The position numbers and the translations under genes were made by a program. This document shows positions 6,612-56,272 of a stretch of 62,099 nt of DNA, piece by piece. The notes below the pieces were generated by a model. That model was not told where the DNA came from. It saw only the letters and a list, made by a program, of their open reading frames with translations, and did not search any database. This DNA is from Neolecta irregularis DAH-3 (taxonomy: Eukaryota), in contig LXFE01000309.1 of the NCBI GenBank assembly GCA_001929475.1, forward strand, positions 1 to 62,099, written 5' to 3'. Position 1 is the first letter of the stretch. Each line of letters begins with the position of its first letter.

Positions 6612-7241
6612 TCAACTCCAACTACCAGCTGTTATCACAGATCCCACAAGTTCTTCTCTGATTTTGATACTTCCAACTGCCTCCTTCGCTTTTCGCGAAA
6701 TCTGTTTCATGAATTCGCGTTCTTCGTGTGATATCTTGTCGCTTGATATTGATTTGATTTCTTCGTCCGACGAGATTGCAAAGTCTATATCATAAACCAT
6801 TCGTCTACCGTGAGAACTTTGAATTTACGTGATAGCATACGAGTAGTTGTTTGTTCGCTCAGAAGAATCTACTGAATGGACGCGCTCTACTGCATTCACA
6901 GCATAGATATCAATCAAATTTCTACAGAGAAAAGTCAGTTTCGAACGTCGCTGCTAAAATCGCATACTCCGATGTTCTCGCAACGATCCTAGCCAATTCC
7001 TCTTGCTCGTGCTGTTGCCGAGCTGGGTCAGGAATATGATTCGGCTGTAAAGATATTGGACTATGATATATAGTTAGAAGTGAGAAGGTTTTGCAAGGTT
7101 TTGCCACTTTGCGTGCAGGGAGTCAGCTTGCAACAATCCCGTTTGTTCTTCAGAATTCTACAATGTAAGCTATTGGTCCAACGGTAGCCATGCAATATCA
7201 GACTCGGTATCTCTCAAAAAGCAAGACAGGCAAATTCCCAT
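6612..7241 (-). CDS. Ego1/Meh1/LAMTOR1-like vacuolar Rag-GTPase anchor
   Basis: ATG 7241 gives MGICLSCF (myristoylation Gly plus palmitoylation Cys); EQTGLL dileucine-like motif; EQEELARIVARTSE core; C-terminal helix ...KAKEAVGSIKIREELVG; first intron is GC-AG (7158-7193). Confidence 0.7.
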
Positions 7242-8426
7242 TCTCACGATGTAGGGGGTGGTTAGGTTTCCGGTCGGCAGTCAACAAACAGTTTACGTCG
7301 ATTGATCAGTTTAAGTTTGAGACCTACCTAACCTTCAAAGGTGAGGTCTCCTAATTTATTCGACTCAGATGAAAGGTAAATTAGGTGCTTGTACGAATCC
7401 AATACTGCTCTTGTCATGTTTTAGAGCATGCTTTTTGTCTGTTTCTGTTCTTTAAATGCTATTCAATGCTAGTGAAGATAAAGGCAAAATATTGCTTCGT
7501 TACTTAAACCTGTAAAAGTTCAACGTACCTCCACACTTTAAGCCGTTTCTGAGAATCTGAACATATGCAAAAACTTAAGAGCCACACTGAGACTTGAACT
7601 CAGTTTCATTATCCAAAATTGATAACAAACCACCGTCTCCTTTTTCACCCTAAGCTAATAAGAGCAAAGTAGAAGGTCCAGACCTTGGACTAGGGAGCGC
7701 AAAATCATCGAAAAAGACTCAATCGTAATAGGCATTGGTAAGACTTCTGCTATAGGTAAGATCAGGTACTGACTAGGCGAGTCTAATCCTTGATCTGTCT
7801 CCAGGGACTAGAGATAATCCGGAAAATGTTATAAATACTACATCCCAACCACTTGTCGTATAGAATCACGAAATTTAGAATTTCATCAAAAAGGACACCA
7901 CTCGGAATTCTAGGCGAAACTCTCCCCTCGATGTCTATTACTATCTACATCACTCCTTCCCTTACCCCCTGTCCTACCTACTTCAGCTTAAGTTCTGCTT
8001 CTTTCGTTGGTTCCTGTTTTCTTCAGAGTATCCTCGATGCCGGGAGTATGTGATATGTTGACGAGTCACCTCGAGCCATTGGGGCTTAGTTTAGTTTTCC
8101 TTTTTTTATCTACAAATTCTAATTAGAAAAAGGATGTTGGGCTCTGCAGGTATTTAGGATAGCGTTCTGCCCCTCTTTGTTTCTCGAAGAGATAGCAATA
8201 CATCATCATCATTAACAATCAATTACTATCCTCAGAACAAGTATAGGCCCCATTCCCTCCCTCCTTCCCCCCTTTTTCGGGTTCCAGAGCTTGGGACAGA
8301 TTCTGCGCTCCACACTTTACATGTCCCAATATATCTGTTTAGCCATCTCATAATGGCGAGATCAGTTGACGACGGCGCGTGGAAACTTTCGAATTGGCAC
8401 CAAAACAATCCATAATCTGAGACAGA

Positions 8427-11400
8427 TCAACGAACCAGTCCAGCGAGTTTACTGTTCCTCTTCATCAACTTTTCAAGCCGTTTGGTAACAATTTCTTCCT
8501 GTTTTAATGCAACATGATATTCTCGTTCCAGTTGTTCAAGGGGTATCTTTGCATCACTGTAACTACCACGAAGAGTTTTCTTAGCTAGATCAATTTGTTG
8601 ATCAGTAAAAGTAAATGACCAAGTGACCGGTCTCTTAAAAAATGGATGTGATTTGAAATCGATTTCATATCCCAAGGAGGTTATAACGTCGATTGTTATA
8701 TCTCGGATTGACTCAGGAGTTGAAAGCCCAGATGGAGTGTCAACTTCTGAGACTACGGAGGATGAAGGTACTCTAATAGGCGTCTTGCTGTTATTCTTGT
8801 CTTTCTTCTGTCGACGTGCTGGAACTGGTGGATGATCCTCAACTGGGTTTACTGGAGTTACTACTGGTGGAGGTATCTCCTCGATGGGCGCTGGCGGAGA
8901 ACCTTGCATACACACAGGAAGACTTTTCTCTGTAACTTTCTTTTCGTCCTTCTTTGTCTTCCGAAACTTGTCAAGCGCCTGAGTTTCAGACCCTTTCTTC
9001 GACTGTTGAAAAGGCAGAGCGTTGGATACTTGTGGAGTCTTGAATGGCACAATGCGAATTCTTTGTGTCTTTGAGTTTTCTCGACTCCCAGCACTCGGAG
9101 AACCAGACATTTCCGTCTTTAACGAAGCAGCAGATTGTGGTCTGGTGGAGGCCATTGATTGAGACACTGGAGTTGGCGAAGGAACTGGACTTGCTTGATG
9201 ATCTATACCCCAGTAAGCCCATGAAGTCGATGAAAGGAGAACTAGAGGACAGCAACAAGCGGGCATTTGAACGTACCGGGGTATAGATCTAACGCGAGGG
9301 GAACTGTGATGGAGAAAATGAAAAGTTAAGACTGCTATTCGCATGCAATTACATGACAACCTAAGTCAGAAAGAAGTAGTGATGATAAACCAATGAGAAT
9401 TAACCGCACAACCAGTACAATAAGCAAGCCAAAATGGTGTAAGAAGAGAAATGAAGATAGGAAAAGAAATCCTGAAGAAAGAAGGATGGTTAAAATGATT
9501 CGCGACAATGAAGCCCCGGAAAGATCAATACACCCCATATCGTTGCGGTTGCTGTCCTCTAGGGAGATTATACCCACCTTGTTGCATGAACCCCTGCTGG
9601 GGAAGGGGACTAGGTCTCATAGACAATATGGCTGGGTCCGCTAGGTCTGAACGCGTCAACTGTGACCTGCCCTGCAAATCAAGTCTACCTCGATCGCTCA
9701 TTATGCCGTCCGTTCGTCTAGCCTGAGGTGCATATATTTGATCTCTGAGCGCACCTTCTCGGGATGTTTGTCGTGAGTGTTCGTTATAAGTTTGTGGCGA
9801 AAAAATGCCTGGTGGAGGGGTCGCTGTTGTCTTGTATGTTGGGCCGCCGAGTGGCTGTTGGAACTGACGTTCGAGGGTACTTGACGCCGCACGTATAGGA
9901 TAGTTGCCAGTGGAAAGTGGTTGAGAGACTCCAGGAGGTGCAACCATCTGTGTGTGATATGCCACCGGTGTTTTGGTTATAATCACGCGTTTTGCATCGA
10001 ATGGATCAAATCCTTGATCAACCAATACAGCTTTCGCGCCTTCAGCCTCGCGCCGTCTCCTAGCAGCATCTTTGGAATATGTGAAGAGAGGAGGCATTGA
10101 CTGGGCATTTCGAAATTCATCCGAGCCAAGAACTGCGGAAGCAAAGACATACTTGAACGAGCCATCGCAGAGAGCAGCAAGGGTCTTTTCAAATGCTCCA
10201 TAAAAGGGTTCAGGAGAAGCTGCCGGTTTTGTAAATCGAAATTTTCCGGAAAGTTTCTGAGGAGATTTACTATTCTGTTTGGATTGAGGCAGTTTTGCAG
10301 GAGGAATTTTAATGCTTGGCGGAGAGAATTCGATTGGTTTCTTTACAGGCGATACTTCCACATGGTCGATTGAAACAGGGGTATTAGAACGGCTGAGCTT
10401 ATTGGTTGCCCAAGATACCTTGGCGGGCAGAGGAGTATGATCGAGTGCATTTTCACTCTGGGAATGTTCCATCGCGACCGGGCGAAGATTTTTGATACGC
10501 TGTTTCTGTTCATTCTGTTTCATGGCATGTTGCCTAGTATGATTAACACTGAATGTTGATAATATCAGGGTGAGCATACAAGCTTGAAAAGTCTTCCCGC
10601 GAATAAGAATAGGAATCCGTTTCTTCGCCAGGTTCATGTAAATACATGCAGTTTGGGTTCTGACAAGGCTGATTTCGTAGATAGGCTGTGCAATATTTTG
10701 TTGTACCCAAAGACGCACTGATACATAAGCAAACTGAGCAGATATCTGGATATACTGTAGGACTTTGCCATCATTAACGCTACCATCCACAGCGTGAATA
10801 GCCCTAGCTGCATCTTCTTTCCTTGCAAATGTGATATATACTTGCACAGGCTTTTGTGAGTTGGCTTGGTTACGTTGGCCTGTGGTATTCCGATTGTTTA
10901 CAACGACTTTAAGGATCTTTCCGTATTGACCGAAGTATTCATGACTTCTTAAGGTTTGTTCAAGTTCTTCGTTTTGAATTTTTGGAATCAACCCAGTGAC
11001 GTAGACCAAATTCTTTTGCTGAACACGAACGGATGCCAAATGTTTTCGGTTCATGACTTCCATTTCCCTTTTTTCCCTTTCTTTCCTTTTCTTCTCCTCA
11101 TTGATCTTCTGCTGCCGCTTCTGATCATTTAGAAGCCTGTAGATAAATATACAGCGTTATTGAGAAGTTACATACTCAACCTGCGTAACGGGTGTGAACT
11201 CTATGGGCCGATCGTCATAAGGCCTTCGACAGGCTGGACATTTCCCATTCAGATTTTGTCTGATATTGTTCCAGCAAAAACAACAGACCTAAGTGCCATG
11301 AATCAAAATGTTCACTTGGAGAATATACCTGATAACCGCACTGGCAAGGCCTGAATGTACGGTCGGCAAGATCCATTTCCTCCATACATAAAGGACTAAC

Positions 11401-11683: not shown

Positions 11684-15130
<3,447 letters not shown>

Positions 15131-17745: not shown

Positions 17746-19203
17746 ATGGGCGCCTTACCCTCGCCGGATCACACACGCTTCAGCAGGGAGACACCCAATG
17801 AAACGTACTGTGACACTGCTGGCTGCCATGTTGTATGCTGCGATAAAGACACCTGCGAAGACGTACCCTTGCTTCCGCAGTGTCAGTATGGCGATGGCTA
17901 TTCAACCCCGCTTGACTATTCGGCTCTGTACCTTACTGTAAGTGTTTTGCTGTATGTGTCGCAGTTACTAAACAAAGAGGCTGGAGTGGCTGGGTTTTGT
18001 TTCCTTGAAGAGCACGTACAAGAAGCATGGAATTGTTCCAACGAACATCACGACGGCTTCCCATCTGCTCCACCCGTTAGCAACCAGAACCAGACAAATC
18101 CATATGGATCGTCAAGCCCAACGCCATATACGCCGAACCAAAATGCTTGGAATCCCTGGGGAGTAGGAGCTCAAGAAAGTCATCAAACATTCCCAGATCA
18201 GCTAATTACTGCTGCCCATTTCGTGGATCAAAACCGACTGCCCTCACGTACTCCACAACTCGAACAGTCAAGCTACTTCTCCAATGTTGGGCATGACTTT
18301 CAGTCGATTAAGTCTGCTCACGGTTCCCCCGCCACTTCAAGTACTGCACCAACAGTCCCGACACCGAACGATATAAGCGCCACTCCAACTTTCCAGGATC
18401 CTCTTAACCCCGTACATTGCAAGTGGTTGCTTGAGAATCCAGTAGGAACGCATTCTTGTGATTATACTCATGCTGACCTAATTAGCAGGCAACTTGTATT
18501 TATGTAATTTCTTTGCACGGAATGCAGAAGCTCTGCAAAAGCATATTGAAAACGAACATATCGGAAGTAGAAAGAATCAGTACTATTGTCATTGGCAGGG
18601 TTGCTCGCGGAATCCAAAGTTGGCGTTCACGCAGAAGCAGAAGGTTGTGCGTCATGTTCAAACGCATACAAGTATTTTGACTCTTCTACTGAATAGGGGT
18701 TTGATATACTTAGACTCAAAGCCCTACCAATGTCCGCATTGTGGTAAACGTTGTGCGGAAAAAGCAACGCTGGACCAACATTTGCATACACATACAGGCG
18801 AGAAGCCTTTTCAAGTACGCTCGATGTTCATGACGCCATATCTTATTAGTGCTAGTGTTCCAAATGCAGCAAATCTTTTGCTGCCCGAACGACTCTTAGT
18901 GTGCATGAACGAACGCACTCAGGGGAAAAGCCGTGAGTTACATATATTTTAAATATGATTAAAAAATAGTCTCCAATGCTCACATTGCTCGCGGACTTTC
19001 TCCGAGTCGTCTAATCTTTCAAAACATATGCGTATACATGAGAGGGAAAAGGCTTTTAAGTGTGATTTCTGTGAGAGCACTTTTACACGATCTGGTACCA
19101 ATTATCTTCTTCATTATCTAATCATCTTGACCAACGTAAACGGCATATTCGAACTCGTCACCCCTCTTTTTTTGAGAGCTGGTATGGAGCTCATAAGGCA
19201 TGA
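17746..19203 (+). CDS. Multi-C2H2 zinc-finger transcription factor, Zap1/ZafA-like
   Basis: Cys-rich N-terminus; fingers YYCHWQGC...FTQKQKVVRHVQTH, TGEKPF and SGEKPLQC linkers, FSESSNLSKHMRIH; last finger CDFC...RSDQRKRHIRTRH needs intron 19095-19129. Confidence 0.8.
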
Positions 19204-20151: not shown

Positions 20152-21280
20152 TCATTGATCGTTCGTCCGTCGAAATAGAGTAATCTCGCTCTGTTTGAAA
20201 TATCTTCGGGCATCTTCATCGACAAGTACCAACGAGAGGTAATATCTACAACTAAACTTTTTGTTGACATCCCGAAAGGTTGGGGTCAAATCGAACCCGC
20301 CCAGAAACAGGCGAATTGGAATAGTTTCTCCTAACAAGTAAGATACTCAGCCAATAACGAGCGTTGCTACCTCGAACTGGAGCGCCGTCCATGATTTCGA
20401 ATTTTGTAATGGTTTCGCTTTCATTATATTGGTTCGGCACAGCGCCTGTCGTCTCTCTTCGGATGATTGACAATTCCATATGCTTGATCTTTAAGCGGAC
20501 AAGGAGAAAATATATTTTCCCGACGATAACATCCTTCAGGTGATATCTACGATATCAGTAAGCACGGTTGGTAAGGGGACAGACTTAGATTTACTATACT
20601 CAAATTCAATATGCAAGCAATCTTCAATCCCAACATCCATCTTGATTGAACTATTGTTTTCGGGAGGAACGCGGTATGAGTACACCCACAGATCTTTTTC
20701 TCTCGTAACATCCGCCATTCGTCGACTCACTGTCACTCGCACAAAATATCTGGACTTCAGCACTCTTCGCTCCTCAAGACGTACCTTAATTTGACATTAA
20801 TGCCATGATAACTTTCGTATTGTTTCTCTACATTTTTGAATTCAAAGTCAAAGGTCTGCGCATGTCGCATTTCCCCGGGCGCAGCCAGTTCCTGAACAAG
20901 GGATAGAAATTCGTAATGATTCCCACGGTCGAAGAAGAGTTCTAAAGGAGAATTGGCATCCATTGAAGTCCGAGATGCTTACCGACCTATGCTGCCAATG
21001 AATTCGACTTTAATGCCAGTATGTTCTAGCCTCTTCCCATCTCGTGGACGAACGGTAACCTAAAGGTCAGGACTATGAGGTCATGCATGTCACATACTGC
21101 TCCTTTGATTGATTCTCCGTCGCAATAGAGTGGCACTTTTTCCCTCCTGTCTTTGCTCACCTTGACATCGACAGTCTTTCGTTCATCATCCCCATCTAGT
21201 CTGATATCAAGGTCAACCTTCCCAGTCAGCAAAAATATCTATGATAAGTATACCGGGCTCTTAAAAAACAACGAAGCCAT
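20152..21280 (-). CDS. VPS26: Retromer subunit Vps26
   Basis: MASLFFKSP|VDLDIRL, EKQYESYHGINVKLRY, IKMDVGIEDCLHIEFEYSK, FEIMDGAPVRGETIPIRLFL, RRYFKQSEI motifs across GT-AG introns. Confidence 0.95.
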
Positions 21281-35781: not shown

Positions 35782-35810
35782 TGCGTGCGGGGATGGAGGT
35801 TAGCGAGAAC

Positions 35811-35841: not shown

Positions 35842-36115
35842 CCCGTCTATTGAGCAACCACCTATTTAGGAAATTTGTCAACATTTCTGAGCTGAACTCA
35901 TTTCTGATGTCATTTTTTGATCTCGATTAGCAAGCGATCGAGTCGAGACCCCGCGAATGCGACTGGATGATGTTTGATTTCCATGGATTTGCAAAGTGAG
36001 ATATTGTCTGGCCTTTTTTGGCCCCGGTAGTGATTTGTAGTACATTACCTGCATCACTGAGCGCTTTAGAAACAGCTAATCTAGAGAATTCCACTTTTTG
36101 TTCAGTGAATATAAA

Positions 36116-37994: not shown

Positions 37995-38128
37995 GGGCTA
38001 TGGCAAGGGAGAGCTAGAGCTGGTGAAGCATAGGCTGCTTTGGTTTGGTTCGAGCGATGCATCAGGTTAACGACAAATTGAAAGAATCCTGAGCCCCCAT
38101 AATTACAAAGTTGCATAATGTGACCCGT

Positions 38129-39734
38129 CTATACAAGCTCCATATTATCTCTTGATGATAGAGTAGGGACTGTCCATTTCCGCTTTTTATTGTTGGGCTT
38201 GAGTTTGGTCCCTTTAAAATGGGTGGAAATATCGCATCCTTCAGATTTTACTGCTTTCCGCCTTTTTCTTGCCTTGGGTACAGTAATCTGTTCTTGTTGA
38301 ATTGAAGGGAGAGTCAACTCTATTCCTGAGGACGATGGATATGTGATGGTTGGGACAATCCGAAATCCATAAGATGATGTTGTCAACGGCAGGCTTTGGA
38401 AAGGTTGAAACGGACCAGACAGGTAAGGTCCTTCCGGATAGAGCTGATATATCCGTTCTTCAAAATATCCGGGGAACAGGTCAGAGAGATGAGGAAGGGT
38501 GAGAGTCGATGCAGTTGATGGTGGGGTAGCTGGTGACAGTACAACTGGCGAACTCCTCGAACTTGAGCCTTCTGTAGAGTCAGAACCATCCTCTGAATCT
38601 TCACGGAGGAGTTCAATTGCGTTCTGGCAATCCCCCTTAACGGTAAGATCCCAAACATTTTCAAATCCTCTGTTAATGGGGGGGTCATCTTTATTGATCC
38701 AAATTACAAGCCCCTTTGAAAGTTAAACAAGTCTCGATATGAATTGAGATTACCTTTGCATGCTTTACTGCTTTGGAGAATTCTTTGACAAGCCGCTGTA
38801 CCCCAGGAACCTTCAGCGATGTTCCAACAACCACCTAACCAAATAAGCCATCCAAGAAACAAAAGGAAGCAATAACCAAGGCATCTGGCCGAGCCCGTAA
38901 GTCTGCAGTACTCACTGTGCCGATGGCATCCTACGGGCAGTTAATATACAAGAAACCTATCGATACGCACCGCATCTGGATTCTCTTCGTGATAGAGTAC
39001 AACTCTCGGTCTCAGCTTTCCAATACCATGTTGTCTCTTCTCGGCAATCCTCCTGACTTGGTCCGTTTCGAGACACCGTTCACAATCTGGGGCTTCATGA
39101 TCCACGAATAGACCGTCTTGGAAAGGGGCCACGGTATGACAGAGTGCACAAACAACGTGGTCAAGTCCTCCATGGAGACGGATTGTTCGAGGCCATGGTC
39201 CCTTCTGAGGCAATGGAATCTCAGTCTTCAAGTCTGGTACTTGCGACTCTAAGCAATCTATATTTTGGGTGTATAATCGTAATAATCTTCCACTGGAGCT
39301 TAAAAACGACATGTAGGAATGAAACGAGGTTGATTGCGAGTTCTTGCACAAGGACTGCATACCGGACATCACCCTGTGGAATTTTCTGAGAGCCTCTTTT
39401 GTTGTATAGACAGATGAGTCGAACATATCCTTCCCGTTTGCAATTTTGAGTTCCGTTCGCAAAGATGCAAAGAGGCCATTATTTGAACGAAAGTCTGGGA
39501 TTCCACTGGCTACCGAAACTCCAGCGCCTTGATACTCAGATGTGGTTAGTTAGAAACGTAGAACATACCAGCGATAACCAGAATTCGATTAGAACATGTC
39601 ATTATGTCGCGGAATGTTTGGAGCGCTTGTTGATCAACGACTGGTGATGTGAGATCCAGGGTTTTCGACAGAAAAGAGCATCTGCTCCAGTATTTCTTGA
39701 ATTTTTGGCGCTTCGCTATCCATGGTTTTGGCAT
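38129..39734 (-). CDS. HST4: Hst4-type (class Ic) NAD-dependent deacetylase, copy B
   Basis: IAG|AGVSVASGIPDFRS, RLYTQNIDCLE, WPRTIRLHGGL, CALC/CERC, RPRVVLYHE; long S/P-rich and basic tail to the stop at 38129. Confidence 0.88.
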
Positions 39735-39850
39735 TATTAGTTGTGGGGACTGTTAGAACGTTCGGAGTTGAGGTGAAAGATCACCCCCAATGACAAAAGA
39801 GGCAATACGGCTCTGGAATTGTGGTCCCCAGACTCTGAAACCTCCAAAAA

Positions 39851-42259
39851 ATGATATTGACAAGGGCCATCATGAATCTCTCAAAGGATGTACTGGCGTC
39901 ACCAAAAGCGAGGGGCACAGCTCTGATCCCGTCAGCTACAAAGAGGAGACAAAGAGGCACTTTATCTGGCGATTCTCCGCCCAATCCTTCCCTAAGCTCA
40001 GGCATTTTCTCGGGATTGACGCTGTATTTCTTTCCTAGTTCTTCGATAAGCTCCACACGACAGAAACGAATGAAACTTGCAGAGCAAGACGGCGCGAAGC
40101 TTGCTCAGAAGTTGACAGATGACGTTACTCATGTGATTGTCGATAAAAACCTGACCGGCTCTATGATACGCAAAATGTCGCTGTTGTCCGAGGTGCGACC
40201 TTTTGGCAAGACTAAGCTCATGGAAAGTTACCAGTAGGATTGATTGGCATACTTGTATCTCACTTCTATAGAAAGATGCCACTATTGTTAATCACAAGTG
40301 GCTCCCGGATTGCTTGTCCGTAAACCCTCCCATACACTATTGGTATCTCTGATCAAGAGTTTCGGCGCATACAAGCCGTCAGCGATACGTATTCAGTTCC
40401 TGAACTGAGTCTGGATCGCGATATTTCACCTGGGCCCTCCAGCGCTCAATCTCCAGGAAGCTCGACAACAAGGAAGAGATCCGTTAGGAAGAGGCAGAAC
40501 CAGGACGAGGAAACAAATCAGGCGAACATAATGAACGAAAGGTACAATATCTTGACCTAACCTTTTAATCCAAAGTTCATGGAATGAATCCAATATTGTC
40601 AATCAAACTTCAGATGATAATAGGAAACAGAGTGGACAGGTCAGAATAGATATTTCAACGATAGAAGAACCGATAGGGAGAATATCGGAAGCTTCATCTG
40701 ATCAAGATTTTGAACAATGTATAGCAATCACGAAGAAATCTTTCGTGAGGGTGATTACTTTCAAGGTTTTTCAGATTAATTTCAATAGACTGGCGGCAAC
40801 GAACTATCCACTGTGTCGAGTCCTGAAGGTTCTGATCCTGCCAGTACCGACCAAGTCACCTGTAAACTACAGTTGCCATCACCCCCAAAACGACAACGCA
40901 AGACAAAATCGAATACAGAAAATTGGGAGGCCGATTTCCAATGTATGCATGAACATACTGGACATAATCTCGAAGAAAATCCAAACTCCTATACTATTGG
41001 AATAGCACGACCCCTTTTATCTCACCACTGATTGGAATAGCTGGAGCAGTTGAGGGATCATTATAAGCGAACTCAAGACCAATGGAGGACAAAGGCAGTC
41101 CAGCAGTTCTATCTTCACTTACCGTCAGAGTTATCGTGAAGCAATAGCAGTTTTGAGGAATCAGAAAGAGTACATAAAAACAGCAGAGGAAGCCAGTAAG
41201 TTAAAGGGAATTGGTCCCGGGATTTCTAAAAAGATTGAAGAGATTGGTAAAATTTCTTCTTCACATAGTTTGAGACTAAAAACAAATAGTTCAGACTGGT
41301 CATCTGGAAAAGCTCGATTCACTAGGCACAAGCGACAAAGTTCTTGAAATGTTTCTAGGGGTTTACAGTATTCCAGTTCTTCGGAATTAATGATAATTGT
41401 AGGATGCGGTCCGAAAACAGCAGAAAAGTGGATACAGGCTGGGTGTCGTTCACTTGAAGATGTCAAACTATGGGGAAACCCTAGTCCCGCTCAACTTATT
41501 GGGATAGAGCTCTACGAAGATCTACATACGCGGATCTCGCGAGATGAAGTAACAGAACAATATGAAATGGTGAAAAATTCCGCCCAAAGGATTGACCCGG
41601 GTCTGATAGTGTACCCTATGGGAAGTTATCGGAGGGGTGCGACGGAATGCGGCGATGTCAGTTTTCTTTGGTCTGCAAACTAATCATCAAGATTGACATT
41701 GTTATCACAAAAGAGAACGCCGAAATGCCTGAACTAGCAGCCTCACTTCCGAAAATTCTGCAGGATCTTCACCAGAAACAAGTAATTATTCGTGGTCCTG
41801 CTGAGGTCGGCGGTGGCGTCGATAATAGCAAATGGCAAGGCATTTCCAAGTTGCCGAAGCCAGGTGCCCTGCATCGACGTATGGACATCCTACTTATTCC
41901 ATGGAACGAGAGAGGTGCTGCATTCATATATTTTGTTTGATATTTTTGTGAATTGTCTCTGATTAAGTAGACCGGTAATGACATCTTCAACCGAAGCATA
42001 CGTCTGTTGGCCAATAGGAAGGGATATAGATTGAGCGAAAAAGGTTTATTTAAGGTGACAGGGCGTCTTGTGTGAATGCTGAATGCAGATTGCGCAAATA
42101 GGGAGACTGAGAGAGAATATTCCCATAGGAAGTCTCGTTGTGAGCGATAGGGAAGAAGATATTTTTAAGTTTCTCGGTGTCCCATTCAAGTATGGTCTTT
42201 CCTTGCCCACAGTGAAGTTGCTGAATTTTTATAGGCCACCAGAACTGCGGAACTGCTAG
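39851..42259 (+). CDS. POL4: Family X DNA polymerase (Pol4/lambda-like) with N-terminal BRCT domain
   Basis: BRCT (VTHVIVD...WLPDCL), GIGPGISKKI, GSYRRGATECGD|IDI, RRMDILLIP, YF|TGNDIFNRSIR, ends PPELRNC*. The start codon is uncertain. Confidence 0.92.
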
Positions 42260-42587
42260 GTTTTAGGCTGTTATATATTTTCGCCTTTAGTTTTGTACCA
42301 CTCGCAGCCCTCCGTAAGATGAGAATAATTATTCCATTGGTGGTTACTGCATCTCTTTCCTCTCTTGAAATTCCTGGTCGTCAGGTACTGAAAACCAGCA
42401 AGTCAAAAAGGTCCGTGCTCATGGATGGCAACAGAAGGGAACAGAGGGATTGTAGTAGTTGACGTGCACAAAAATATGGAGACAAATGAAAAACAACAGG
42501 GTTAAATAGTCTTTCTCATGTTCTACGAATGCAAAAAATGCTAGTTTTCCTAAAACAATACACTGGCGCGCCGACCACTTACGTACA

Positions 42588-43479
42588 TCACTGATCCTGA
42601 GCTTGCAAATCAGCCGCCCTCTGGGCTATAGCTGCCGGCATGAAGTACTCGTGATACATTTGCTTTCGTTCCCTCCGCTGACTTGCATATACACTATTTA
42701 GTTCTCGTACAGATTTGGCATGAGCAAACATCCCATCCAACGAAACACTTTGATGTGCCTCCCGATGAGGCACTAATGCAGGATCCCGCAGATTCTTTTT
42801 CGGGCGAGGAGTTCGTTCGTCTTGAGGAATTGCAAAGGTAGCTGGAGGAAGTTGTGGGAGGTCTGCATCGGCAATATCTGAGGCAGTAAATCCTTCAGTA
42901 ATAGCTTCTTTCTCCCAGTAATCGTCAATAACTCTACGGCCGTCCTTGATCATTTTACCTCCAAAAGCACGGAAAACACTCCTGGCGGTTACAACAGCAA
43001 TTTGCCTCGATCGATAGCTCTGAGGGATGATACCAGTGGTAATCAAAAAGTCTTTCTCGGCCTAGGAGTCAATTCAAAGACAGACATGAATTATGTGCCT
43101 GGGTTGAAACGATCTTTTTAAGCGATTTGTTCTTCTGGTAGAATAGATACGAATCGCGATACCCTAAAGGCCTGGCCGCCTCAGTTGCCAACATGAATTT
43201 CTTTTCTCCTCGACCAAGGAATTTAAATGTCCGGACCTTGAACTCTCGCCCACTTAGAAGATCACCATCTTCTGTTATCTTTGATTCGCCAGCTTCATCG
43301 ATATCTGATATTGAGTGTTCGTCGGGATCTTGTTTGATAGTTTGGAGGGAAGATGAAGCGACATTTTCAATAGCTTCTGATGGTTTACGCTCGCGGCGCT
43401 TGACTCTAATTTGCTCATCTTCAGAATCCTCTTCAAATTCTGTGAGTGGAGAATCGCCTTTCGAATCATCGAAGTCCAT
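42588..43479 (-). CDS. Chromatin-remodelling subunit of the Rsc7/Swp82 (Npl6) family
   Basis: GESKITEDGDLLSGREFKVRTF...FMLATEAARPLGYRDSYLF, YRSRQIAVVTARSVFRAFG...VIDDYWE; one GC-AG intron (43062-43098). Confidence 0.88.
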
Positions 43480-43616
43480 ATGGTATTAAGGAAAGGGTTT
43501 ACTTTCAAGTCACGTTGATCCTACGTCACTTACATAGACTCACCTGTATTTACTTCTAGATATGTTCATTTATATACCACTCCTTCATCTAGATTCTTTG
43601 AAGGCTGAATAGGTAG

Positions 43617-45129
43617 TTATACCGACTTCTCACTGAGTGCCAAGATTCCCGGAAGGTCTTTTCCTTCTAGTAGTTCAAGGGAAGCTCCACCTAAAGGTTA
43701 CAGTTGAATCGTTTGAATCTAAATACCTCCAGTTGAAACATGGCTAAGTTCATTCTCCATCCCCCATCTATAGACGGCTGATGCAGTATCTCCTCCGCCT
43801 TCAACTGTCAGGATGCAATTGGGACAAATGCCAAACCGATTATTACAGTTGTTCCAGTGCGGGCAGCTTCGACGGCAGCTTGAAGGGTAGCTTTGGTTCC
43901 TTCGGCAAATTTGTCGAACTCGAAAACGCCGCAAGGACTTGCTTGTCAGGCATTGATAGCATGGCAACCTCGTACCCGTTCCAGAGAATCGTCTTTGCGT
44001 TGAGGATTGCTCTCTTAAAAAGCTCTCTAGACTTCTCACCACAGTCTAAACCCATCCATGAGTCCGGAATCCCTTGTTCATCATTTGCATATCCAATCTC
44101 CGCATTCTTGTCAAACTTATCGGCTGTCACATAATCGATAGGGAAAATGATGCTGACATTGAGTCTTTTGGCCTTCTCCAGGATTGCTTTGACGACCTTC
44201 GCTCCGGCTTCGTCGTACAATGATTGGCCAATCTTGCGTCAATAAGAAGGCAGAGAGGTTGCACACCTTGACGTGCTCGAGAGTCTTTTTGAACGTGAAG
44301 GCCATACCTCCACAGATGATGAGTGAGTCGACCTTTGGTAGGAGATTTTCAATCAATTGGATCTTGTCAGAGACTTTAGCTCCCCCGAGAATAGCCAGGA
44401 ATGGATGTTTAGGCTCCTCAAGTGCTTTGGAAAAATATTCAAGCTCTTTAGCCATTAACAGGCCGCTTGCTTTCTGAGCAAGGTCAATGCCAACCATTGA
44501 GCTATGAGCCCGATGTGCAGTTCCGAAAGCATCATCTATGAATTAGCCCAGGACAAGTATAACATTAACGTACTGACGTAGACATCGCCGAGAGCCGTGA
44601 GACTTCTCCGAAACTGTTGGACCATCTCGGAGTCCGCCTCGATCTCCTTCCCTTCCTGGTTTTTGGTGCTACCCTCTTCTTCGATATGGAAACGCAAATT
44701 TTCTAGTAAGATGATTTCACCTATCAATTGGCATTGCAACAAAGCAAGGCATGCCATCCTTGATATTCTGGCATCTATATTCAACTGGACCTCCTACACA
44801 ATCGTCAAGAAATGTGACTGGCTTGCTAAGCAAGCGTCCCAATTCTTTAGCAACGGGCTTCAGCGAGTACTTGCTAACAACTTTTCCATTTGGTCGCCCA
44901 AGATGAGACATCAGAACAACAGCCTTAGCACCTTGATATTGTGAGGATTGAAGATATATTGAGTCGTACCATTATCCAAACAGTACTTGATTGTCGGAAG
45001 GGCTGCAACAATTCGTTGATTGTTTGTGATTTTCCCGTCTTGAATAGGCACATTAAAATCGACACGGCAAAGAACCCGTTTTCCCCTGATTTGCAGGTCT
45101 GTTATAGCGAGTTTCGACGAAAGAGACAT
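43617..45129 (-). CDS. PGK1: Phosphoglycerate kinase
   Basis: [72 protein letters not shown]. Confidence 0.97.
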
Positions 45130-45293
45130 GGTGGTTGAATAAAAATGGGAAGATACAGGTTTTGGTGATGACGTGAATCTTCCGACCTGTTCCGATTTAC
45201 GAAAAATATCATAGTGAGGGGAAACAAATTCCTTAGAGGATTTTATTGAACTTTTCTGCAAGTATTTCCTATTTATATACTATACAAGCGAGT

Positions 45294-45711
45294 TTAACCT
45301 GTCATCGGATTAGGATGTGCGCCTGGGTTGGAGACTTTGTCCAGTTCCGCTCTTGAATATATCAGCATTTGTAGAATACACAGTGGTCGTACTTCAATAA
45401 CTTTGAAAAGTCATCTTCGACATCATCGTCATCCCAGTTGTTTTCCCATAAATGGTTCTTATTTGTAGGCAGACCGATTTTTGTATCAGCGTCTTCCCAA
45501 TCTAAATGTTAGTATCACTTCAATTGCGCCGTTAATCGCACCTTCTACCGGAAAGTCTTCGAACTCGTCGTCATCCCCGAATCCTAAGGGTTTTTTCTGC
45601 TCGGTTGCTTTCTTAATTGGTTTTTCAGTCTGAGATGTCGACGATTTTGGTTGTTGAGCGACCTAAATTAATAGTCTGGTCTGGTTCTTTGATTTCGTAT
45701 ACCTTGGACAT
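45294..45711 (-). CDS. SEM1: Proteasome lid subunit Sem1/DSS1 (absent from the ORF track)
   Basis: Four exons: MSK|...DDDEFEDFPVE|DWED...HLWENNWDDDDVEDDFSKLL|KAELDK... Confidence 0.92.
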
Positions 45712-46180
45712 ACTTAAGTTTCTGTGCAAACCTCTTATCTGGATAATGAAGGCTCCTCTAGGATCGTGTGGAGTTGGATTATACAATTGTAGGTTTTAGT
45801 ATTTAGTCAGCGCCACCTGTCGCAAAAGACTCACTTTTGGTAAGGATATACATTCTTCCTCAATGATGCTGCTTTAGATAACTTAAACATTAATTCACTT
45901 ATAAGTATATATTGTATTTTAAGAGAAAAAATGCTTTTAGAGATCTATCTGAGCACGCAGTACTACTTGTAATTACTCGGCTTGACAACAGAAATCGGTC
46001 GAGAAACTTTGCTTAATGAACGAAAAATTATTGCTGAGTCTATACCTTAATGCAGACATTGTCTGTCAGAAGTATGTACTATGTTATCTTACATAAGAAA
46101 AAAAGCAGACATGCACCGAGGGAAGACATAATAATAAACCAAAACCTCAAGATACCCAACACACCCCATATTAACCATAT

Positions 46181-48961
46181 TTAAGATGCAGGTGAATTCC
46201 GAAATCGTCCAGATGCCGGACGCCCCTCACAGTCAAATGATGGCCGGACCATGTCCGACATTGCAAATAAGAGCTCGTCCTCTTCCACTCCGATATTGAA
46301 ATTATAAACTCCACTACCGCTTCCTGAATTGTTACGCTTCGCACCTTCTTGGGAAACTCGTCTCCCAGATTCATCTGCAGTTAGGCTGAGTGTAGAACTT
46401 GATGGCGAAAGCATGTGCCGTCCTCTTGATATGAATCTGCGAGCCGAACCAAGGCCTCGACTTGAAGTTTCAGATGTCGAAGTCTGCTGTAGAGCCGTTG
46501 TTCTAGCACCAGCTGCTGGTTTATCTGCTGACTTCCCACTCTCGGGACTTTTGTTCATTTCTCTGTTGGTTTTCTCGCGTTGGATATTCAAATTCTCCAT
46601 CGATATCCGCCCTATTGCTGAAAGTCCATCAAGACTACCGAGGGATGCCGGATGTTTGCGTGTATTTTCTCTTATCTCAGTCATATGATCATCCGGCGCA
46701 AAGGTAAACGAACTGGCCCTGACGCGACGGTAAATGTTAGGCGAGGATGGTATGTCTAACGGTGTGCTTTTTGGCGACATAGTTGGAAAAAGGCAGAGAA
46801 TATCCCGACGTTGTGTTTCAGATGATTGATCGATAGATATCTGATGAGCTCCAACAAACTCCTCGCTAAGCCTAGACGGAACAGCAGGAATGTGGGGAGA
46901 TGTAGATTTCAAATGTATCGGGGATGAAAAGTTTACTGGTTCTGAATCTGAAAGGAGCTTTTTTAGATTTGACGATGATGGAAGAGACGAGGGTTGGATT
47001 GACCCTGAACTTGAGAGCGATTCACCGAAAGCTACATGAGATTCTTTCAACTTGTGGAACCTATCAAGGGTATTCTATATATTAAAAGAAATACAACAAG
47101 GTGTCATACTTTATCTCGAGATCCAGCTGATTCGATGATAGGTGCACAGTTCGAAAGCTTCAATGGTTGTTTGCTATCGATCATCTTGACAAAATCTGCA
47201 ACTTCTTCATCGTCATTCTCTAAGAAAGGAGACCCTAACTTGCTAGAATCAGGGAATCCCTCAACATGACCGGTGGAAACTCGGCGATAACTGCCTGCAG
47301 AAGTAAAACTACCGGATCTTCGATGCCCAAAACTGCTGCTATAGCGAGGTGCGGGTGACGGTGGCGGGGAGGAGGTAATTTGTTGAGCACCCTGCTGTTG
47401 GACTGGCACGGGCGTTATTTCAGACCTCAATGACGAAGAAGCCCTCAGGGAACCCGGACGCGAATTCGGTCGTTGTATCGACGAGGACGAGGGTACTCTG
47501 TGAACGGATAGCTTAGGAGAGGTAGAATGTTCATACGAGGATGGTGAAGCAGAAAGCGATGGTGCCTTAAAAGGTTGATGAGTAAAGACCATAGAAGAAT
47601 GTCGACGACTTGGCTCCTATGAAATTCGCATATTATCAAAGTTTTGGGAACATACCTGAGACCCAAGTGAAGACCTCGAGGTTCTTCCTGCAGATGTCGT
47701 CTCGCCGTAATGTCTCGGTGAGCTTCCAGATGGGGTTCTCAAGGAGTTTAGAGGACTTTCTCTCTGACTACCAGGCAAATTTGATGATAAACTGCCCTGT
47801 AGGTTGATTTGTCCGGGTGTTGGGAGGGATGGTCGTTGTGAGGTCGATACCTTTCCACTCCTGGTCGCAGTCCCGTCAGAATGAGTGCGAAATTGAAACC
47901 CTTGATCATGGTGAATGAACTGAGAACTTAACAGGGCTTCCGATTCGCTGACGCGAAAATCGCACATGCTTCGATAAGATACCTGTAGGTTGAAATTTCT
48001 TCGTATTAATTCAATGAGAATGCATTGGATATACCCAGCGGGCGAAATAATGGGACCAAAAGTATACTGATTAACCGAATCTGACTCTCCGACCAAAGGA
48101 GTGCCGATATCTGTACAACGATAATCTAGACTGCGACGATCGGAGCTGAGAATGCGACACCCGAGCTTGAGATTGTAGTTTCCTAGCTTCGACTTTTCCA
48201 TTCTTCGTTTCAAGTTCCAAGAAGGTAAAAGTCGCGTCTGGGCGAATAAAGTACGAAAGTATACAATCGATTTTTTGTAGACGACTGGTAGATCAGGCGG
48301 ATTCGGACGAACGGGCTTTCTACTTCAATGAGAACAGTTCATTGGTTGCAAGAAGGGACCTGAGTTCTAGCTTCCATCGTTCCAAGATAATCTCGCCACC
48401 TTTGACATGCCTACCGCCCGAATCGACATTCCTTCTGCGTCCATTATCATCTACAAGAAGGAGAACTTGATTCGTCGTCATATCGCGTGTATCAAGAAAG
48501 ACGTCGATGATCATAGGTTTGTAGTCTTCCAGGTCTTCGTTGAATTTCCATAAAGCCAGCTCATCTTTAAATGCCTCAGTCTCTTCAATATCGATACTAA
48601 ACTAATGGTTAGCATAGTAGTTATATTGATGTTCCATGCCCATCGATTCGCTCTTTTATTCAAGGTACCACGCTGATAGGATGGCTGAGTATCGATTCGT
48701 GATTGAATCACAACAATCGCGGTCTTGGTGAAGAAGTTCTATTTATCAGCGAAACAGCGCATAAAGTGGATTTGCCTGAAGGATTTGGTTTAACTTGGCC
48801 AAACGCGTAGGAACGTTCGAATACATGGGCGGGTTCGACAGATTTCCATCTTGAGGAAGCGGAGGAGCTACTGGGGGACTGTTTGAGTGTGCGGAATTGT
48901 ATTCATTGGAAGCATCGCGCTGTGACGACGGCCGGGACGATGGCAATGGGCGATAGGCCAT
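46181..48961 (-). CDS. ATG13: Autophagy protein Atg13 (HORMA domain plus long S-rich disordered region)
   Basis: KLNQILQ|NFFTK, NRW|FSIDIEE, IILERWKLEL, DLPVVYKKSIVYFRTL, VSYRSMCDFRVSESEALLS, PRYSSSF, DEEVADFVKMID, EEDELLFAMSD. Confidence 0.9.
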
Positions 48962-49325
48962 GCTATATCATTGTTTGGAGATATGCCAACTCCAGACAGG
49001 GTATGAACCGGCGAGGAAGGCGGGTTGAGATGGAGGTGGATGTTTGGCAGGTGCGATATGGTAGTCGACTTGGGAAGAGTCCTCATTGGGTACACCCCAG
49101 AAACGCTCAGTTTGTCTGATTCAACATGGTTACTCTTACAATATACTGGGATTCGCACTTGTTGTATTATCTCGAGGCTTACAATATCGGCCCGTCCCGG
49201 AAAACGCCCATGATTACATATCAAAATCAGTTTCATAATTCATGAGACACCGCATTTTCCATTTTACAGGTTCTGCAGTCTCGAAAGCGAGGAAAGTTTG
49301 GCCTGCTCATTCTTGAAACCGTTAG

Positions 49326-52230
<2,905 letters not shown>

Positions 52231-52579
52231 CGTCCGACAATAATCTGATCAATTTTATGAATGAATGAGATATCAGAACCGAGTATTCACTTGGGTTCGA
52301 CTTCAAGAACGATGAATGGAAGCAAATTATACCAGACCTTGTGAAGAAAAGGGATGCTGTTGTTTCGAAAAAAGGGAAAATCGAACAAATTCCAAAAGAT
52401 AGTAAAATAAACTGGTCGCAAAGAATGCCGGAGAATCTTTTGTTAGAAGCGCGACATTGTGTCGAGAGGTAATCAAATTGCAAAGTCAGAACGGGGAGAG
52501 TTTGTGAAACCCAGGAATGCAACAGCCCAAAGATATTTGATGAGCTCCATTCAATTAAACACAAGAGAAATTCCTCTAG

Positions 52580-53036
52580 TTAAGCCTATGAGACATAGTC
52601 AGCACCATCTATATCCGGTCCGATGGTTGGTACCTTCAACGCGTATTTTCGCTGAGGAAAATGGATATCCTTCTTTTTTTGCTTCTCTGTTTTTAAATTT
52701 CGCTCGTGGGTCGTCAGTCTTCGTCGAATGGCCCGAGTCTTCTTATATCTGAGATCTATGGGCATATTTTTATCTCCACGATACTTCAGTTGAAGATTGT
52801 GTCGGGTTTGAGCATTAATAACTGTAAGAACCCGGGCAATGTCTTTTCGGACTTTTTGGCTGGCAAGATCAGCTCTACCTTCTATTGATATGGGTATACA
52901 TTTTTATGATTTTTGAGGCGGCACCGCCGGCGATCTTCTGGACCCGTAGCGTATTCAGCTCGTGCTTGAGTTCATCGAGCTGTTGGGTAAGCTCCGCTTT
53001 GGATTTCTGGCGCAGTTCGTAAGCCGAATTCTTCAT
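52580..53036 (-). CDS. RPL35: 60S ribosomal protein L35 (uL29) (absent from the ORF track)
   Basis: [27 protein letters not shown]...[13 protein letters not shown]...[15 protein letters not shown]...[10 protein letters not shown]; two introns. An additional upstream exon is possible. Confidence 0.95.
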
Positions 53037-53097
53037 TTCTGGTGGAAAGAGGTAGTAAGCTGGACTGTTGGATGTAAAGGATTGCGGTGAGATCTGC

Positions 53098-53105
53098 CAG
53101 TCACG
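53098..53105 (+). promoter_or_regulatory. Homol-D-like box (CAGTCACG) in the RPL35/GOS1 bidirectional promoter
   Basis: One mismatch from the fission-yeast ribosomal-protein promoter element CAGTCACA; about 60 nt from the RPL35 ATG. Confidence 0.5.
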
Positions 53106-53169
53106 AATGGCTACTAATTAGTGAACCAACTAATTATAACCTCCATGCCACTTTACGCCTATCTTTGTA

Positions 53170-53980
53170 ATGTCATCTGCAACTCCAACAACTGCTTGGG
53201 CTACCCTCCGCAACCAGTCAAGGCGACTAGAAGAAGAAACAGATGTATTGTTTTCGAGATACTCGGCCTTGGCTAGCGAGTCTGTGTCCTCTGTAGACGA
53301 AACTGTTGAATCTTCCATCAGAGATTCGCTCATGCGAGTACGTCTGGTTGTAGTTTTAATAATTCACCGAACAGAGGGGGCAAATCGTTGAAAGCCTGTC
53401 GATAAGTCTAGATTCAGATTCTGGAGCAAGTGCTGCAAAGACACACCAACTTGCTAGATCAAGAGAGATTTTGGCTGACCATGAGAGGGAATTCGCTCGT
53501 CTGAAGGTACCTGGATCCCCGGTCAATTGCTCATTTGTTACAGGCGAATCTGCAACAATCACGCAATCATGCTAACCTGCTTTCATCAGTTCGTCAGGAC
53601 ATCAAGTATGAGCCTAAAGTGAGTGTTTGCTCAACCATCCAGCATATTTCGTGCACAGTCAGAATCGTCAACATCCGATCAGTTTCTACGAGAGCACGAA
53701 AGTATTTCTAGTTCTCATCGCATGACGGATAGTATACTCGCTCAAGCGTACGAGACCAGGGACGAGTTTGGAAGACAACGAGCTGCCTTGTCTCGGATGA
53801 ATATGAGACTGTTAAACTCTGCGAGTATCCTTTATTTTGTCACAACATATCTAACGTCTAGGCTCAATTCCTGGCTTAAATAAAATTATTGGCAAAATCA
53901 ACACTCGGAAAAAACGAGACAGCGTTATTCTCGCAGTCATCATCTCCATGTGTATCTGTGTCTTTTTATTCTGGGGGTGA
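53170..53980 (+). CDS. GOS1: Golgi SNARE Gos1/GOSR1
   Basis: WATLRNQSRRLE N-terminus, SHRMTDSILAQAYETRDEF SNARE helix, IPGLNKIIGKINTRKKRDSVIL, C-terminal TM segment. Confidence 0.9.
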
Positions 53981-53981
53981 A

Positions 53982-54957
53982 TCATGCTGGTTTCTGGAGT
54001 TCAGATAAGCTGCTGGCTTCCTCGTATAATCGTTTCGCACAATGAAGTAAGCTTTCTTTTTCATCTGAACTTGCTTCACCACATGCTGCCCACCGTATTC
54101 TACAGTCCGAATCCACAAGGTAGACATATCCAAGGTATGAATTCATAAGCCCGATGGAAGGCTTTACATGCTTGTCCAGCCTGGTGATAAAGAAATAGCG
54201 ATCCTGACATTAATTGAAGGCCCTGCAGAATAACTTGCATGGCGATGATCGGGAACGACATTCCTCAATCCTGGAAGACACGCCCAGACTATGGCAGCTT
54301 TTAAGTAATTTTCTTGTATGTTCAGTTCCACCAGACCATCATCTCCAAAGGCTTTCACGAAAAGATCTTGATACACATTACATTGATCATCACCGAACTT
54401 TGACGTGCTAATGGTCACTAATGACACTTTGTTCTCTTTAATAGTGGGGGTTGTATCTCGGTCTTTTGACTTCAATGTTCGACCATGAAAATTGGGTATA
54501 TATTGTGCTTTCTGAGAAGTCAGTCAAAAAAATATATCAGTAAAGCTACCTCCTTCTTGAAAATCCTCTTTGGTGCAATCCAATGCTAAAGATTCAAATG
54601 GGATTAGCCAGCGAATCATGACATACCTTCCCATTGTTTATTTTTATATCATGGAAATCTTTCCAGTAACTGGTAGAAATTTCAGACACACTTTTATTAG
54701 TATGCAAAATATAACAAGAATTATTACAGCTCCTGCCGCCGCTCTAGGTGTTTGTCGTAATTAACAAGATCTTCCTTTCGTTGCTTCCAAGATCTCTCGT
54801 CTTTTCCCAGATTTTCTCCTGCATGGGGTGGTGATGTCACCCCGATTGGCCTTGATAATGGCGGAATTGACAATGAAATGTGCCTTCGGCATTTGCTAAA
54901 AGTATGCGCAATCAAAGAGGTTCGGGAGTTGAACTTCCATACGTGGAAGATAGACAT
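53982..54957 (-). CDS. ATP10: Mitochondrial ATP synthase assembly factor Atp10
   Basis: PLSRPIG...PPHAGEN...[44 protein letters not shown]. Confidence 0.85.
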
Positions 54958-55042
54958 CGAGCCTGAATCTCCGGACTATTCGGACTATTGCGTTGGGATG
55001 ATGTCCAGCATCGTCAACTCCACGCATAATCCGTTATCGCAG

Positions 55043-56272
55043 ATGTCTGTCCAACCATCGAATTCGGCATGTTTGAATTTATTCCCAGCGATTAATCGTC
55101 AAGAAAAAGCGAAAACACTCATTTTCCCAGACTCCTCGGCAAAAGCGACCCAAAATCACGGGCAATTATGATGAAAATCGTCGCCGCGAAGATTTCGACA
55201 AGAAGCTGCAGCAATGCAAGAAAGAAGTAACCCAAGCGTTCAAAAAGGCAAAGACATTCGAGATCCAAAAGATTGCTAAAAGGATGAGGATAGCGAGGTG
55301 TACCCGCAGAAAATAACTATAACTTATTTTGTAGAAAATCAACTGATAATGAGACTTTGATTCGACTGGCTGAAGAGCTGGAAGCCGTTAAAGTATTTGG
55401 GACATATTCATTTTATTCATATACAGGCTCTCGATGTCGTCTTCCTAGCAAACTTTCATCTATACAGGATGCTATCAAGAAATCCACGAATCGCCGAAAC
55501 CAAATTCCTCCCACCTGTCCCTGAGAACAAATACCATGATGCTTCAAAACCCGTATTAAACGTTGTAGCGAGATTATACAATAGTAGGACCATTAAGGAT
55601 ACGAGCACCGGTACCACAATTTTGATGAACCGCCTTTTAGGAGATCACTTGAATCCTGAAAAAAGCAGTGATCGACCTACAGGAAAAATCTTTTTTAAGA
55701 TTGAAGGGGAGATAGATGAACTAGAGGGGGCATCTACACCTGTGAGTGGCAACTTTGAATTCAGCAAATTCGACTCGGAGAACGATATAGAAAGTGATTC
55801 TAAAGGAGGCGATGTTTCTTCGGAAGCTGATAGAAGTGCTCCCCCCCTCAAACAAAAATCTTCAAAGACAACAATTGTGCCGACAAGCATCTTGAAAGCA
55901 ACTACAAGCCATGCATCTACTTTCCTGCCGACATTGAGTGCAGGATATGTGCCAGGAGACAATGAATCAGATGCGGATGCCGAATATGAGGCGATATCTG
56001 GCGATAAATGTGAACGGAAGAATCGAAGGGGTCAACGAGCAAGGAGACAACTATGGGAAAAGAAATATGGGAAGAATGCAAACCATGTCAAGATTGAGGC
56101 AGAGAAAGAGCTCCTATTGCAAAAGCGGAAAGATCGATTTGCTAATCAACGTGTCTTGAAAGAAAATTCAGCGGCTGAAAGGCCCCTTCACCCGTCATGG
56201 GAAGCAAAAAAGAAGATGAGAGAGCAGCTCTCCTCTACAGCCAAATTCAGTGGGCAGAAAATAAAGTTCTAA
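55043..56272 (+). CDS. BUD22: Ribosome biogenesis protein Bud22/SRFBP1-like
   Basis: KKAKTFEIQK, STFLPTLSAGY, RKNRRGQRARRQLWEKKYGKNANH, PLHPSWEAKKK, FSGQKIKF. The start at 55043 assumes a GC-AG first intron. Confidence 0.9.

Follow-up and report, generated by a model that had tools for sequence, protein, structure and literature searches.

Eleven short segments in a stretch of 62,099 nucleotides (nt) from the fungus Neolecta irregularis DAH-3 (assembly GCA_001929475.1, contig LXFE01000309.1; the whole stretch is hereafter called the window) are probably genuine U2-type introns, removed by the major spliceosome, that begin with GC instead of GT and end with AG, and such GC-AG introns are unusually frequent on this contig. 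In a curated set they make up 11 of 145 introns, or 7.6% (95% confidence interval 3.8%–13.2%). The sequence-only reading, an earlier note made from the letters of the window, had proposed these segments as introns of 34–40 nt that all start with GCA and had taken them as signs of a relaxed 5' splice-site code. All 11 are present in the letters at the positions and on the strands given below, with lengths of 34–40 nt, GCA at the start and AG at the end, and joining the flanks restores an open frame and the motifs named for each gene. They occur in nine genes spread across 48 kilobases (kb), as follows.

7158–7193, minus strand: GC-AG intron of 36 nt with donor GCATGG, first intron of a LAMTOR1/Ego1-like gene; graded as probable
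14894–14933, plus strand: GC-AG intron of 40 nt with donor GCATTA, in the C-terminal KH-like region of PRP5; supported by homologue alignment
32053–32089, minus strand: GC-AG intron of 37 nt with donor GCAAAA, in the S-adenosylmethionine synthetase gene (SAM1); supported by Pfam continuity
41005–41040, plus strand: GC-AG intron of 36 nt with donor GCACGA, in the DNA polymerase lambda/Pol4 gene; supported by the frame and homologues
41095–41128, plus strand: GC-AG intron of 34 nt with donor GCAGTC, in Pol4; supported by homologues, with a GT donor at 41098 as the weaker alternative
43062–43098, minus strand: GC-AG intron of 37 nt with donor GCACAT, in an Rsc7/Swp82-family gene; supported by Pfam and the end of an X2 piece
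44721–44754, minus strand: GC-AG intron of 34 nt in phase 1 with donor GCATGC, in the phosphoglycerate kinase gene (PGK1); supported by Pfam continuity
48602–48639, minus strand: GC-AG intron of 38 nt with donor GCATGG, in ATG13; supported by an X2 joint and Pfam continuity
48739–48775, minus strand: GC-AG intron of 37 nt with donor GCAAAT, in ATG13; supported by an X2 joint
54204–54238, minus strand: GC-AG intron of 35 nt with donor GCAAGT, in ATP10; supported by an X2 joint and Pfam, and the sole full consensus among the 11
55067–55103, plus strand: GC-AG intron of 37 nt with donor GCATGT and an AAG acceptor, first intron of BUD22; supported by an X2 joint

Two assemblies, X1 and X2, were compared with the window over positions 35500–55499, an interval that holds eight of the 11 introns (those at 7158, 14894 and 32053 lie outside it). 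The X1 re-assembly covers the whole interval at a word depth of 423–449 with no other letters and no insertions or deletions. Assembly error, which the sequence-only reading had named among the outcomes that would undo it, is thus excluded for the GC donors of these eight introns. The X2 contigs match the window at 99% or more in six of six records, yet they skip 61 short segments, and their word share of 0.73 reflects missing introns rather than divergence. From these intron-less contigs we infer that X2, which is recorded as 'DNA?', is a transcript assembly. X2 is also recorded under an organism code different from that of X1.

Fifteen of the 61 joints in X2 are listed, including every joint of depth 192.8 or more. 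Each of the listed skips measures 34–41 nt and can be placed on the gene strand as GT..AG (11 joints) or GC..AG (four joints), and for the latter four GC..AG is the only placement on the gene strand that ends in AG. Two of these joints belong to ATG13 (48601->48640 for the intron 48602–48639 and 48738->48776 for 48739–48775, both with ends CT..GC on the plus strand), one to ATP10 (54202->54238, where one letter is ambiguous; placed at 54204–54238, the skip has ends CT..GC), and one to BUD22 (55065->55103, also with one ambiguous letter; the placement 55067–55103 gives GC..AG). The BUD22 intron had been graded as probable from the letters and is borne out by its joint. In Rsc7, the end of an X2 piece lies at 43059, where a 37-nt skip of 43062–43098 has its leftmost placement; under the 49-nt GT alternative it would lie at 43060. 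The same leftmost-placement rule reproduces five other X2 piece borders. The transcript check that the sequence-only reading had called for, here made with contigs of inferred RNA origin, therefore finds exact removal for five of the eight GC-AG introns in the compared interval (four joints and one piece end). In the X2 record for 38712–42235, the Pol4 region, 646 nt are skipped against 686 nt predicted after corrections. The 40-nt remainder in this one-record arithmetic equals the size of any one of several predicted introns and is therefore neutral on the two GC-AG introns of Pol4.

Independent support was obtained by scanning the flanking exons separately against Pfam and comparing profile coordinates across each junction. 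In PGK1, residue 57 of the 58-residue upstream exon falls on position 102 of the PGK profile and the downstream exon starts at 105, with the last upstream residue and the split Gly codon occupying positions 103–104; no in-frame GT alternative is visible at 44721–44754. The S-AdoMet_synt_C profile runs without interruption from position 34 to 35 over the SAM1 junction 32053–32089, as does ATP-synt_10 from 195 to 196 over the ATP10 junction. The ATG13 profile is continuous from 31 to 32 across 48602–48639, and the exon that follows 48739–48775 starts at position 3 of the same profile. In Rsc7, the upstream exon ends at position 78 of the CRC_subunit profile and residue 2 of the downstream exon lies at 80; the 49-nt GT alternative is in frame and would remove four residues. 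The BUD22 profile match begins 35 residues inside the exon after 55067–55103.

Homologous proteins were used for PRP5 and Pol4. The GC-AG model of PRP5 aligns across the junction without a gap in five of five homologues, and it scores 158.1 bits against a hidden Markov model built from those five, compared with 108.8 bits for the public model P0004. In Pol4, the frame remains open only if 41005–41040 is removed, and the public model P0001 shares this junction. The form of Pol4 from which both GC-AG introns are removed, which is also the form in P0001, aligns without gaps to both homologues available (P0002 and P0003). The 18-residue Pol4 exon was judged by local BLASTP against the homologues, and the exon after 41095–41128 starts at position 29 of the HHH_8 profile. 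A GT donor 3 nt downstream, at 41098, had been noted as an in-frame alternative to the donor of 41095–41128. This donor exists but appears to be disfavoured: the GC-AG form gives no gaps and 71.2 and 70.1 bits, and the GT alternative gives one gap and 67.8 and 65.5 bits, a deficit of 3–5 bits.

The intron at 7158–7193 fits in letters and frame, as proposed for the Ego1-like gene, and it is held here as probable. Exon 2 of this gene lacks an ATG and has an in-frame stop ahead of it, and the sole upstream frame with an ATG (MGICLSC...) stops inside 7158–7193. The next exon, 6970–7044, matches positions 28–51 of the Pfam LAMTOR profile with E = 6e-4, short of the cut-off, and because the match starts at position 28, about 27 profile positions would be coded further upstream. 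Searches for homologues of the Ego1-like exon returned none at E <= 0.1 and one spurious match to a repeat protein.

The denominator of the GC-AG share comes largely from a custom gene finder, self-trained on the window, that uses exon/intron dynamic programming. Limited to GT donors, this finder returns 131 introns, the lengths of which peak sharply at 34–42 nt. Its predictions were benchmarked against the X2 joints of four genes, where 14 of 20 were exact, one was off by 3 nt and five were false. Introns next to micro-exons escaped the finder, and in a sirtuin gene it passed over coding sequence that is in frame. For the curated set, finder calls shown to be false and GC calls that could not be verified were removed, and introns supported by X2 or by homology were added. 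Because of the finder errors in the denominator, the GC-AG share could lie anywhere from about 7% to 10%, and it would be about 9%–10% if one in four of the GT predictions outside the benchmark were false. Among introns supported by X2, through joint rows or inserted letters, 4 of 20 are GC-AG, although these 20 were selected by depth and not at random.

The share expected from other genomes is far lower. GC-AG introns average 1.009% over 130 fungal genomes, 0.983% in animals and 1.488% in plants (PMC7072748, Table 1), and 11 of 145 against the fungal mean is an approximately 7-fold excess (binomial P = 3e-7). The claim that introns normally rare, at the order of 1%, are enriched here is thus upheld for this contig. 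As a chance control, all 16 donor dinucleotides were allowed with one equal penalty for the 15 that are not GT; the finder then picked GT 117 times, GC 10 times, and the other 14 dinucleotides 20 times in total (mean 1.4 and maximum 4 each). It could still be argued that the window is a local fluctuation in a genome with an ordinary GC-AG rate of about 1%–2%, as 62 kb were sampled and the denominators are partly predicted. The spread over nine genes and 48 kb speaks against this, as do the P value at 1.009% and the P value of 2e-4 obtained at 2% with an earlier intron set (11/149), and we regard a fluctuation as very unlikely.

The remaining artefactual explanation is that the gene models are wrong and nearby GT donors are used, or that the GC letters are assembly errors. 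In-frame GT alternatives do exist at 43062 (49 nt) and 41095 (3 nt downstream), and the finder did produce false GC calls at 20978, 18450 and 54851. Set against the X2 joints and piece end, the continuity of profiles and homologues, and X1 without variant letters, this explanation is largely refuted and scarcely credible.

Several finder calls were rejected or set aside. The GC call at 20978–21016 in Vps26 is false: the segment is coding (GIKVEFIGSI), and the true intron there is GT-AG at 20942–20986. The GC call at 18450–18488 was dropped because it would need a 4-nt exon, and that at 9672–9706 is unneeded as the frame is open unspliced. The calls at 54851–54883 (GC) and 54748–54791 (GT, donor GTGTTT) have no joint in the X2 contig that covers them, as judged from the joints listed. 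A long 'intron' at 39258–39362 is in-frame coding sequence with a sirtuin motif, and three finder introns in ATG13 (47851–47982, 47243–47280 and 47392–47425) are not among the X2 joints of that gene. The GC call at 53396–53433, which could not be verified, was left out of the count, as were the two candidates that follow.

4198–4231, plus strand: candidate GC-AG intron of 34 nt with donor GCAAGT, picked by the finder
25886–25921, plus strand: candidate GC-AG intron of 36 nt with donor GCATGC, a branch-like TTGAC and a TAG end

Unspliced, the frame through 4198–4231 stops two codons later, so that an intron is not required. At 25886–25921, splicing could instead start from a GT donor 9 nt upstream, and the protein belongs to no known family; at a further candidate, 24474, a GT donor also competes and homology gives no basis for a choice. 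Both 24474 and 25886 had been listed as ambiguous and stay so.

Degenerate GT donors, the second element of the proposed relaxed code, are likewise evident. In 129 short GT introns, A is found at +3 in 67%, T at +4 in 54%, G at +5 in 40% and T at +6 in 52%, and positions +3 to +6 together hold 1.07 bits. G at +5 reaches 56% in the 16 transcript-supported GT introns, whose donors include GTCCCT, GTAGCT, GTAATA and GTGTAC. For comparison, the Fusarium donor is given as A38A38G53/G100T99A74A42G93T66, and +5 is G90 in five other fungi and G94 in Neurospora (PMC5677156). The contig resembles the typical fungal splice sites of that source in having G at -1 in about half of its introns, a preference for A at +3, T at +6 and CTRAY/TTRAY branch sites, and departs from them in +5 G, down to 40% from 90%–94%, and in C at +2, up from about 1% to about 7.6%. 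Acceptor position -3, which is Y93 in Fusarium (PMC5677156), is A in 27% of the short introns here (38/139), and AAG acceptors are common.

Length and branch site are, by comparison, tightly held. A length of 33–42 nt is found in 125 of 140 short introns, with a median of 38 nt. Of 139 short introns, 95 have a YTVAY motif 5–13 nt from the 3' end, compared with 23.4 in shuffles (maximum 37). The motif is present in 9 of the 11 GC-AG introns, which in branch site and spacing resemble the GT-AG introns of the same contig. None of the 11 donors continues with ATCC after its first two bases and the branch motifs are CTRAY-like, which sets these introns apart from the U12 type (donor /RTATCCTT, branch TCCTTAAC; ATATCC and CCTTAAC are quoted in PMC3033335).

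When the two classes of donor are compared, matches to the U1-complementary consensus over seven positions (without +1 and +2) number 3.19 for GT donors, 3.73 for GC donors and 1.79 by chance. A occupies +3 in all 11 GC donors but in 87 of 129 GT donors (Fisher P = 0.034). GC-AG introns in animals and plants usually keep the GCAAGT consensus, which compensates for C at +2. Such a near-consensus donor (AG/GCAAGT), typical of these introns without defining them, is seen here in one of 11, that of ATP10, in agreement with the earlier count. The introns described here are thus like ordinary U2-type GC-AG introns in their GC 5' end, AG 3' end, neighbour-like branch site and length, lack of a U12 donor, and removal; they differ in being about seven times commoner and in having GCAAGT once among 11.

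Two other cases of loosening at +2 can be compared. GC-AG introns make up 39.6% in Aureococcus anophagefferens, 22.2% in Micromonas pusilla and 7.7% in Chlorella sp. (PMC3033335), and if the 7.6% of this contig held across the genome, Neolecta would resemble these algae, in which a share far above 1% is lineage-wide. The authors of that study linked the algal excess to a G+C content of 64%–70%, reported the U1 5' end as unchanged and called the cause an enigma (PMC3033335). The window has 41%–46% G+C along its length and does not belong with the high-G+C genomes described there, and it also differs in its introns of 33–42 nt and in GT donors that are degenerate too. GA-AG donors in Oikopleura dioica and Eurytemora affinis, at 3.2% of supported sites (PMC7072748), are alike in being a lineage-specific loosening at +2 with A conserved at +3. 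As that source describes them, they differ in having A rather than C at +2, in a strongly conserved upstream AG and in belonging to animals.

The introns, their removal, their frequency on the contig and the degeneracy of their donors fit the reading of a relaxed 5' splice-site code, and the tolerance itself may be explained as follows. The 5' splice sites hold very little information beyond G at +1, a pyrimidine at +2 and a preference for A at +3, and a YTRAY-like branch site is located 6–11 nt upstream of the 3' AG. Base pairing between the donor and U1, and afterwards U6, may add little to recognition, and a fixed short distance from donor to branch site to acceptor would define the intron. 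With donor pairing weak and spacing fixed, a change from T to C at +2 would cost little and could therefore persist, with C at +2 seemingly tolerated only when A stands at +3 (11/11). Length and branch-point spacing, on which the sequence-only reading had made intron definition depend, are both tight on this contig; that recognition relies on them would follow from this proposal.

At unconstrained intron positions C/(C+T) is 0.37, and comparison with the GC share of 7.6% implies that T at +2 is still selected for. This value bears on the possibility that the machinery is standard and purifying selection weak, such that slightly harmful T-to-C donors are fixed by drift at a small effective population size and spliced less efficiently. 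The persistence of selection against C at +2, as shown by a GC share far below 0.37, speaks for this explanation, as does the occurrence of the GC-AG introns in ordinary housekeeping genes. However, the spliced form is the assembled X2 path in all four of the listed GC joints, at depths like those of neighbouring GT joints, although contigs cannot measure efficiency. We consider drift unlikely as the explanation.

A different kind of explanation places the change in the reader. A specific alteration of the splicing machinery (the U1 5' end, the U6 ACAGAGA box or its N6-methyladenosine, U1C, Luc7 or Prp8) could accommodate C at +2, which would be an adaptation and not tolerance. The large GC-AG excess would suit such a change, and the degeneracy at +5, far from that of other fungi, could reflect altered pairing with small nuclear RNA (snRNA). 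On the other hand, the putative U1 5' end has the unchanged consensus in the two algae that have the highest known GC-AG shares (PMC3033335), and GT still accounts for 92% of the donors here. An Rfam scan of the window gave no match, and the window contains no gene for an snRNA or one of these factors. We judge a change of this kind to be rather improbable. It is doubtful, too, that the spliceosome of this lineage reads +2 as 'pyrimidine' if +3 is A, through a definable change in the U1 small nuclear ribonucleoprotein, in U6/U5 contacts or in a modification. If this were true, the GC-AG share would be the highest known in fungi, and Neolecta would provide a natural mid-G+C system for asking what enforces GT.

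Some points weigh against genuine, unusually frequent GC-AG introns under a relaxed code. The GC-AG share comes from a single 62-kb contig, and most of its denominator comes from the self-trained finder, with false and missed introns. X2 is recorded as 'DNA?', and its RNA origin is deduced solely from its missing introns. Fifteen of the 61 X2 joints are listed, and for the introns at 41005, 41095 and 44721 the evidence is that of homology. The closeness of GC and GT donors to the consensus does not differ significantly (P = 0.16), which makes neither compensation nor its absence firm, and the rule of A at +3 is drawn from 11 cases (P = 0.034).

A GC-AG excess is not described in the literature searched, which yielded no account of one in Neolecta or in Taphrinomycotina, and in the Neolecta irregularis genome paper (PMC5309816) neither 'intron' nor 'splic' occurs in the main text. 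Some of these introns are already present in public gene models: P0001 uses both GC-AG introns of Pol4. The public PRP5 model P0004, by contrast, removes conserved coding sequence at 14857–14893 (plus strand) by means of a GT-AG site, translates the true intron 14894–14933 as 13 residues and lacks the KH_12 match present in the homologue P0005. Gene sets that disfavour GC donors will carry errors of this kind in Neolecta. Few lineages are rich in GC-AG introns, and until now they have been linked to algal genomes of very high G+C. A fungus of medium G+C with mini-introns, a collapsed +5 position and about 7%–10% GC donors separates the GC-AG excess from base composition, and related Taphrinomycotina offer a tractable comparison for what enforces T at +2.

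The public Pol4 model has a further peculiarity at its C-terminus. P0001 ends in ...FIYFV because a 36-nt GT-AG intron at 41935–41970 (plus strand) is read through; with three additional GT-AG introns spliced out, the frame extends to a stop near 42260 and matches the C-terminus of P0002, and the last of these introns agrees with an X2 piece border at 42235.

Short open frames crowd both strands of the window, and the gene finder recovers about 30 genes with products typical of fungi. Those identified include PRP5, S-adenosylmethionine synthetase, Pol4/Pol lambda, Rsc7, PGK, ATG13, mitochondrial LeuRS, ATP10, BUD22, Vps26, two sirtuins and one P450. The sirtuin genes are paralogous (Hst-like) and lie one on each side of the P450 gene, at 34405–35781 and 38129–39602, both on the minus strand. 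ATP10 (minus strand) and BUD22 (plus strand) diverge around 54957–55043 with start codons about 85 nt apart and are covered by a single X2 contig, and the convergent genes Pol4 (plus strand) and Rsc7 (minus strand) also share one X2 contig. These shared contigs suggest that transcripts of neighbouring genes overlap.

Micro-exons were also observed, one of 6 nt in Pol4 at 40228–40233 (plus strand) and two of 16 and 12 nt in the P450 gene at 37690–37705 and 37760–37771 (plus strand). They were recognised from letters that X2 contigs carry between the joints 40192->40272 and 37644->37805, and each has a GT-AG intron on either side. From the pair in the P450 gene it is clear that G18 and G19, modelled as separate genes, belong to a single one. 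Not all introns keep to 33–42 nt; a few reach about 100 nt, such as the 102-nt SAM1 intron at 32576–32677 (minus strand), the splicing of which gives ...GAGDQ/GIMFGYA with no residue lost. Finally, an open frame at 3–425 (plus strand) runs off the 5' end of the window and encodes tandem imperfect peptide repeats (VKVDSVE.. / NVKEDSVEIALE..).

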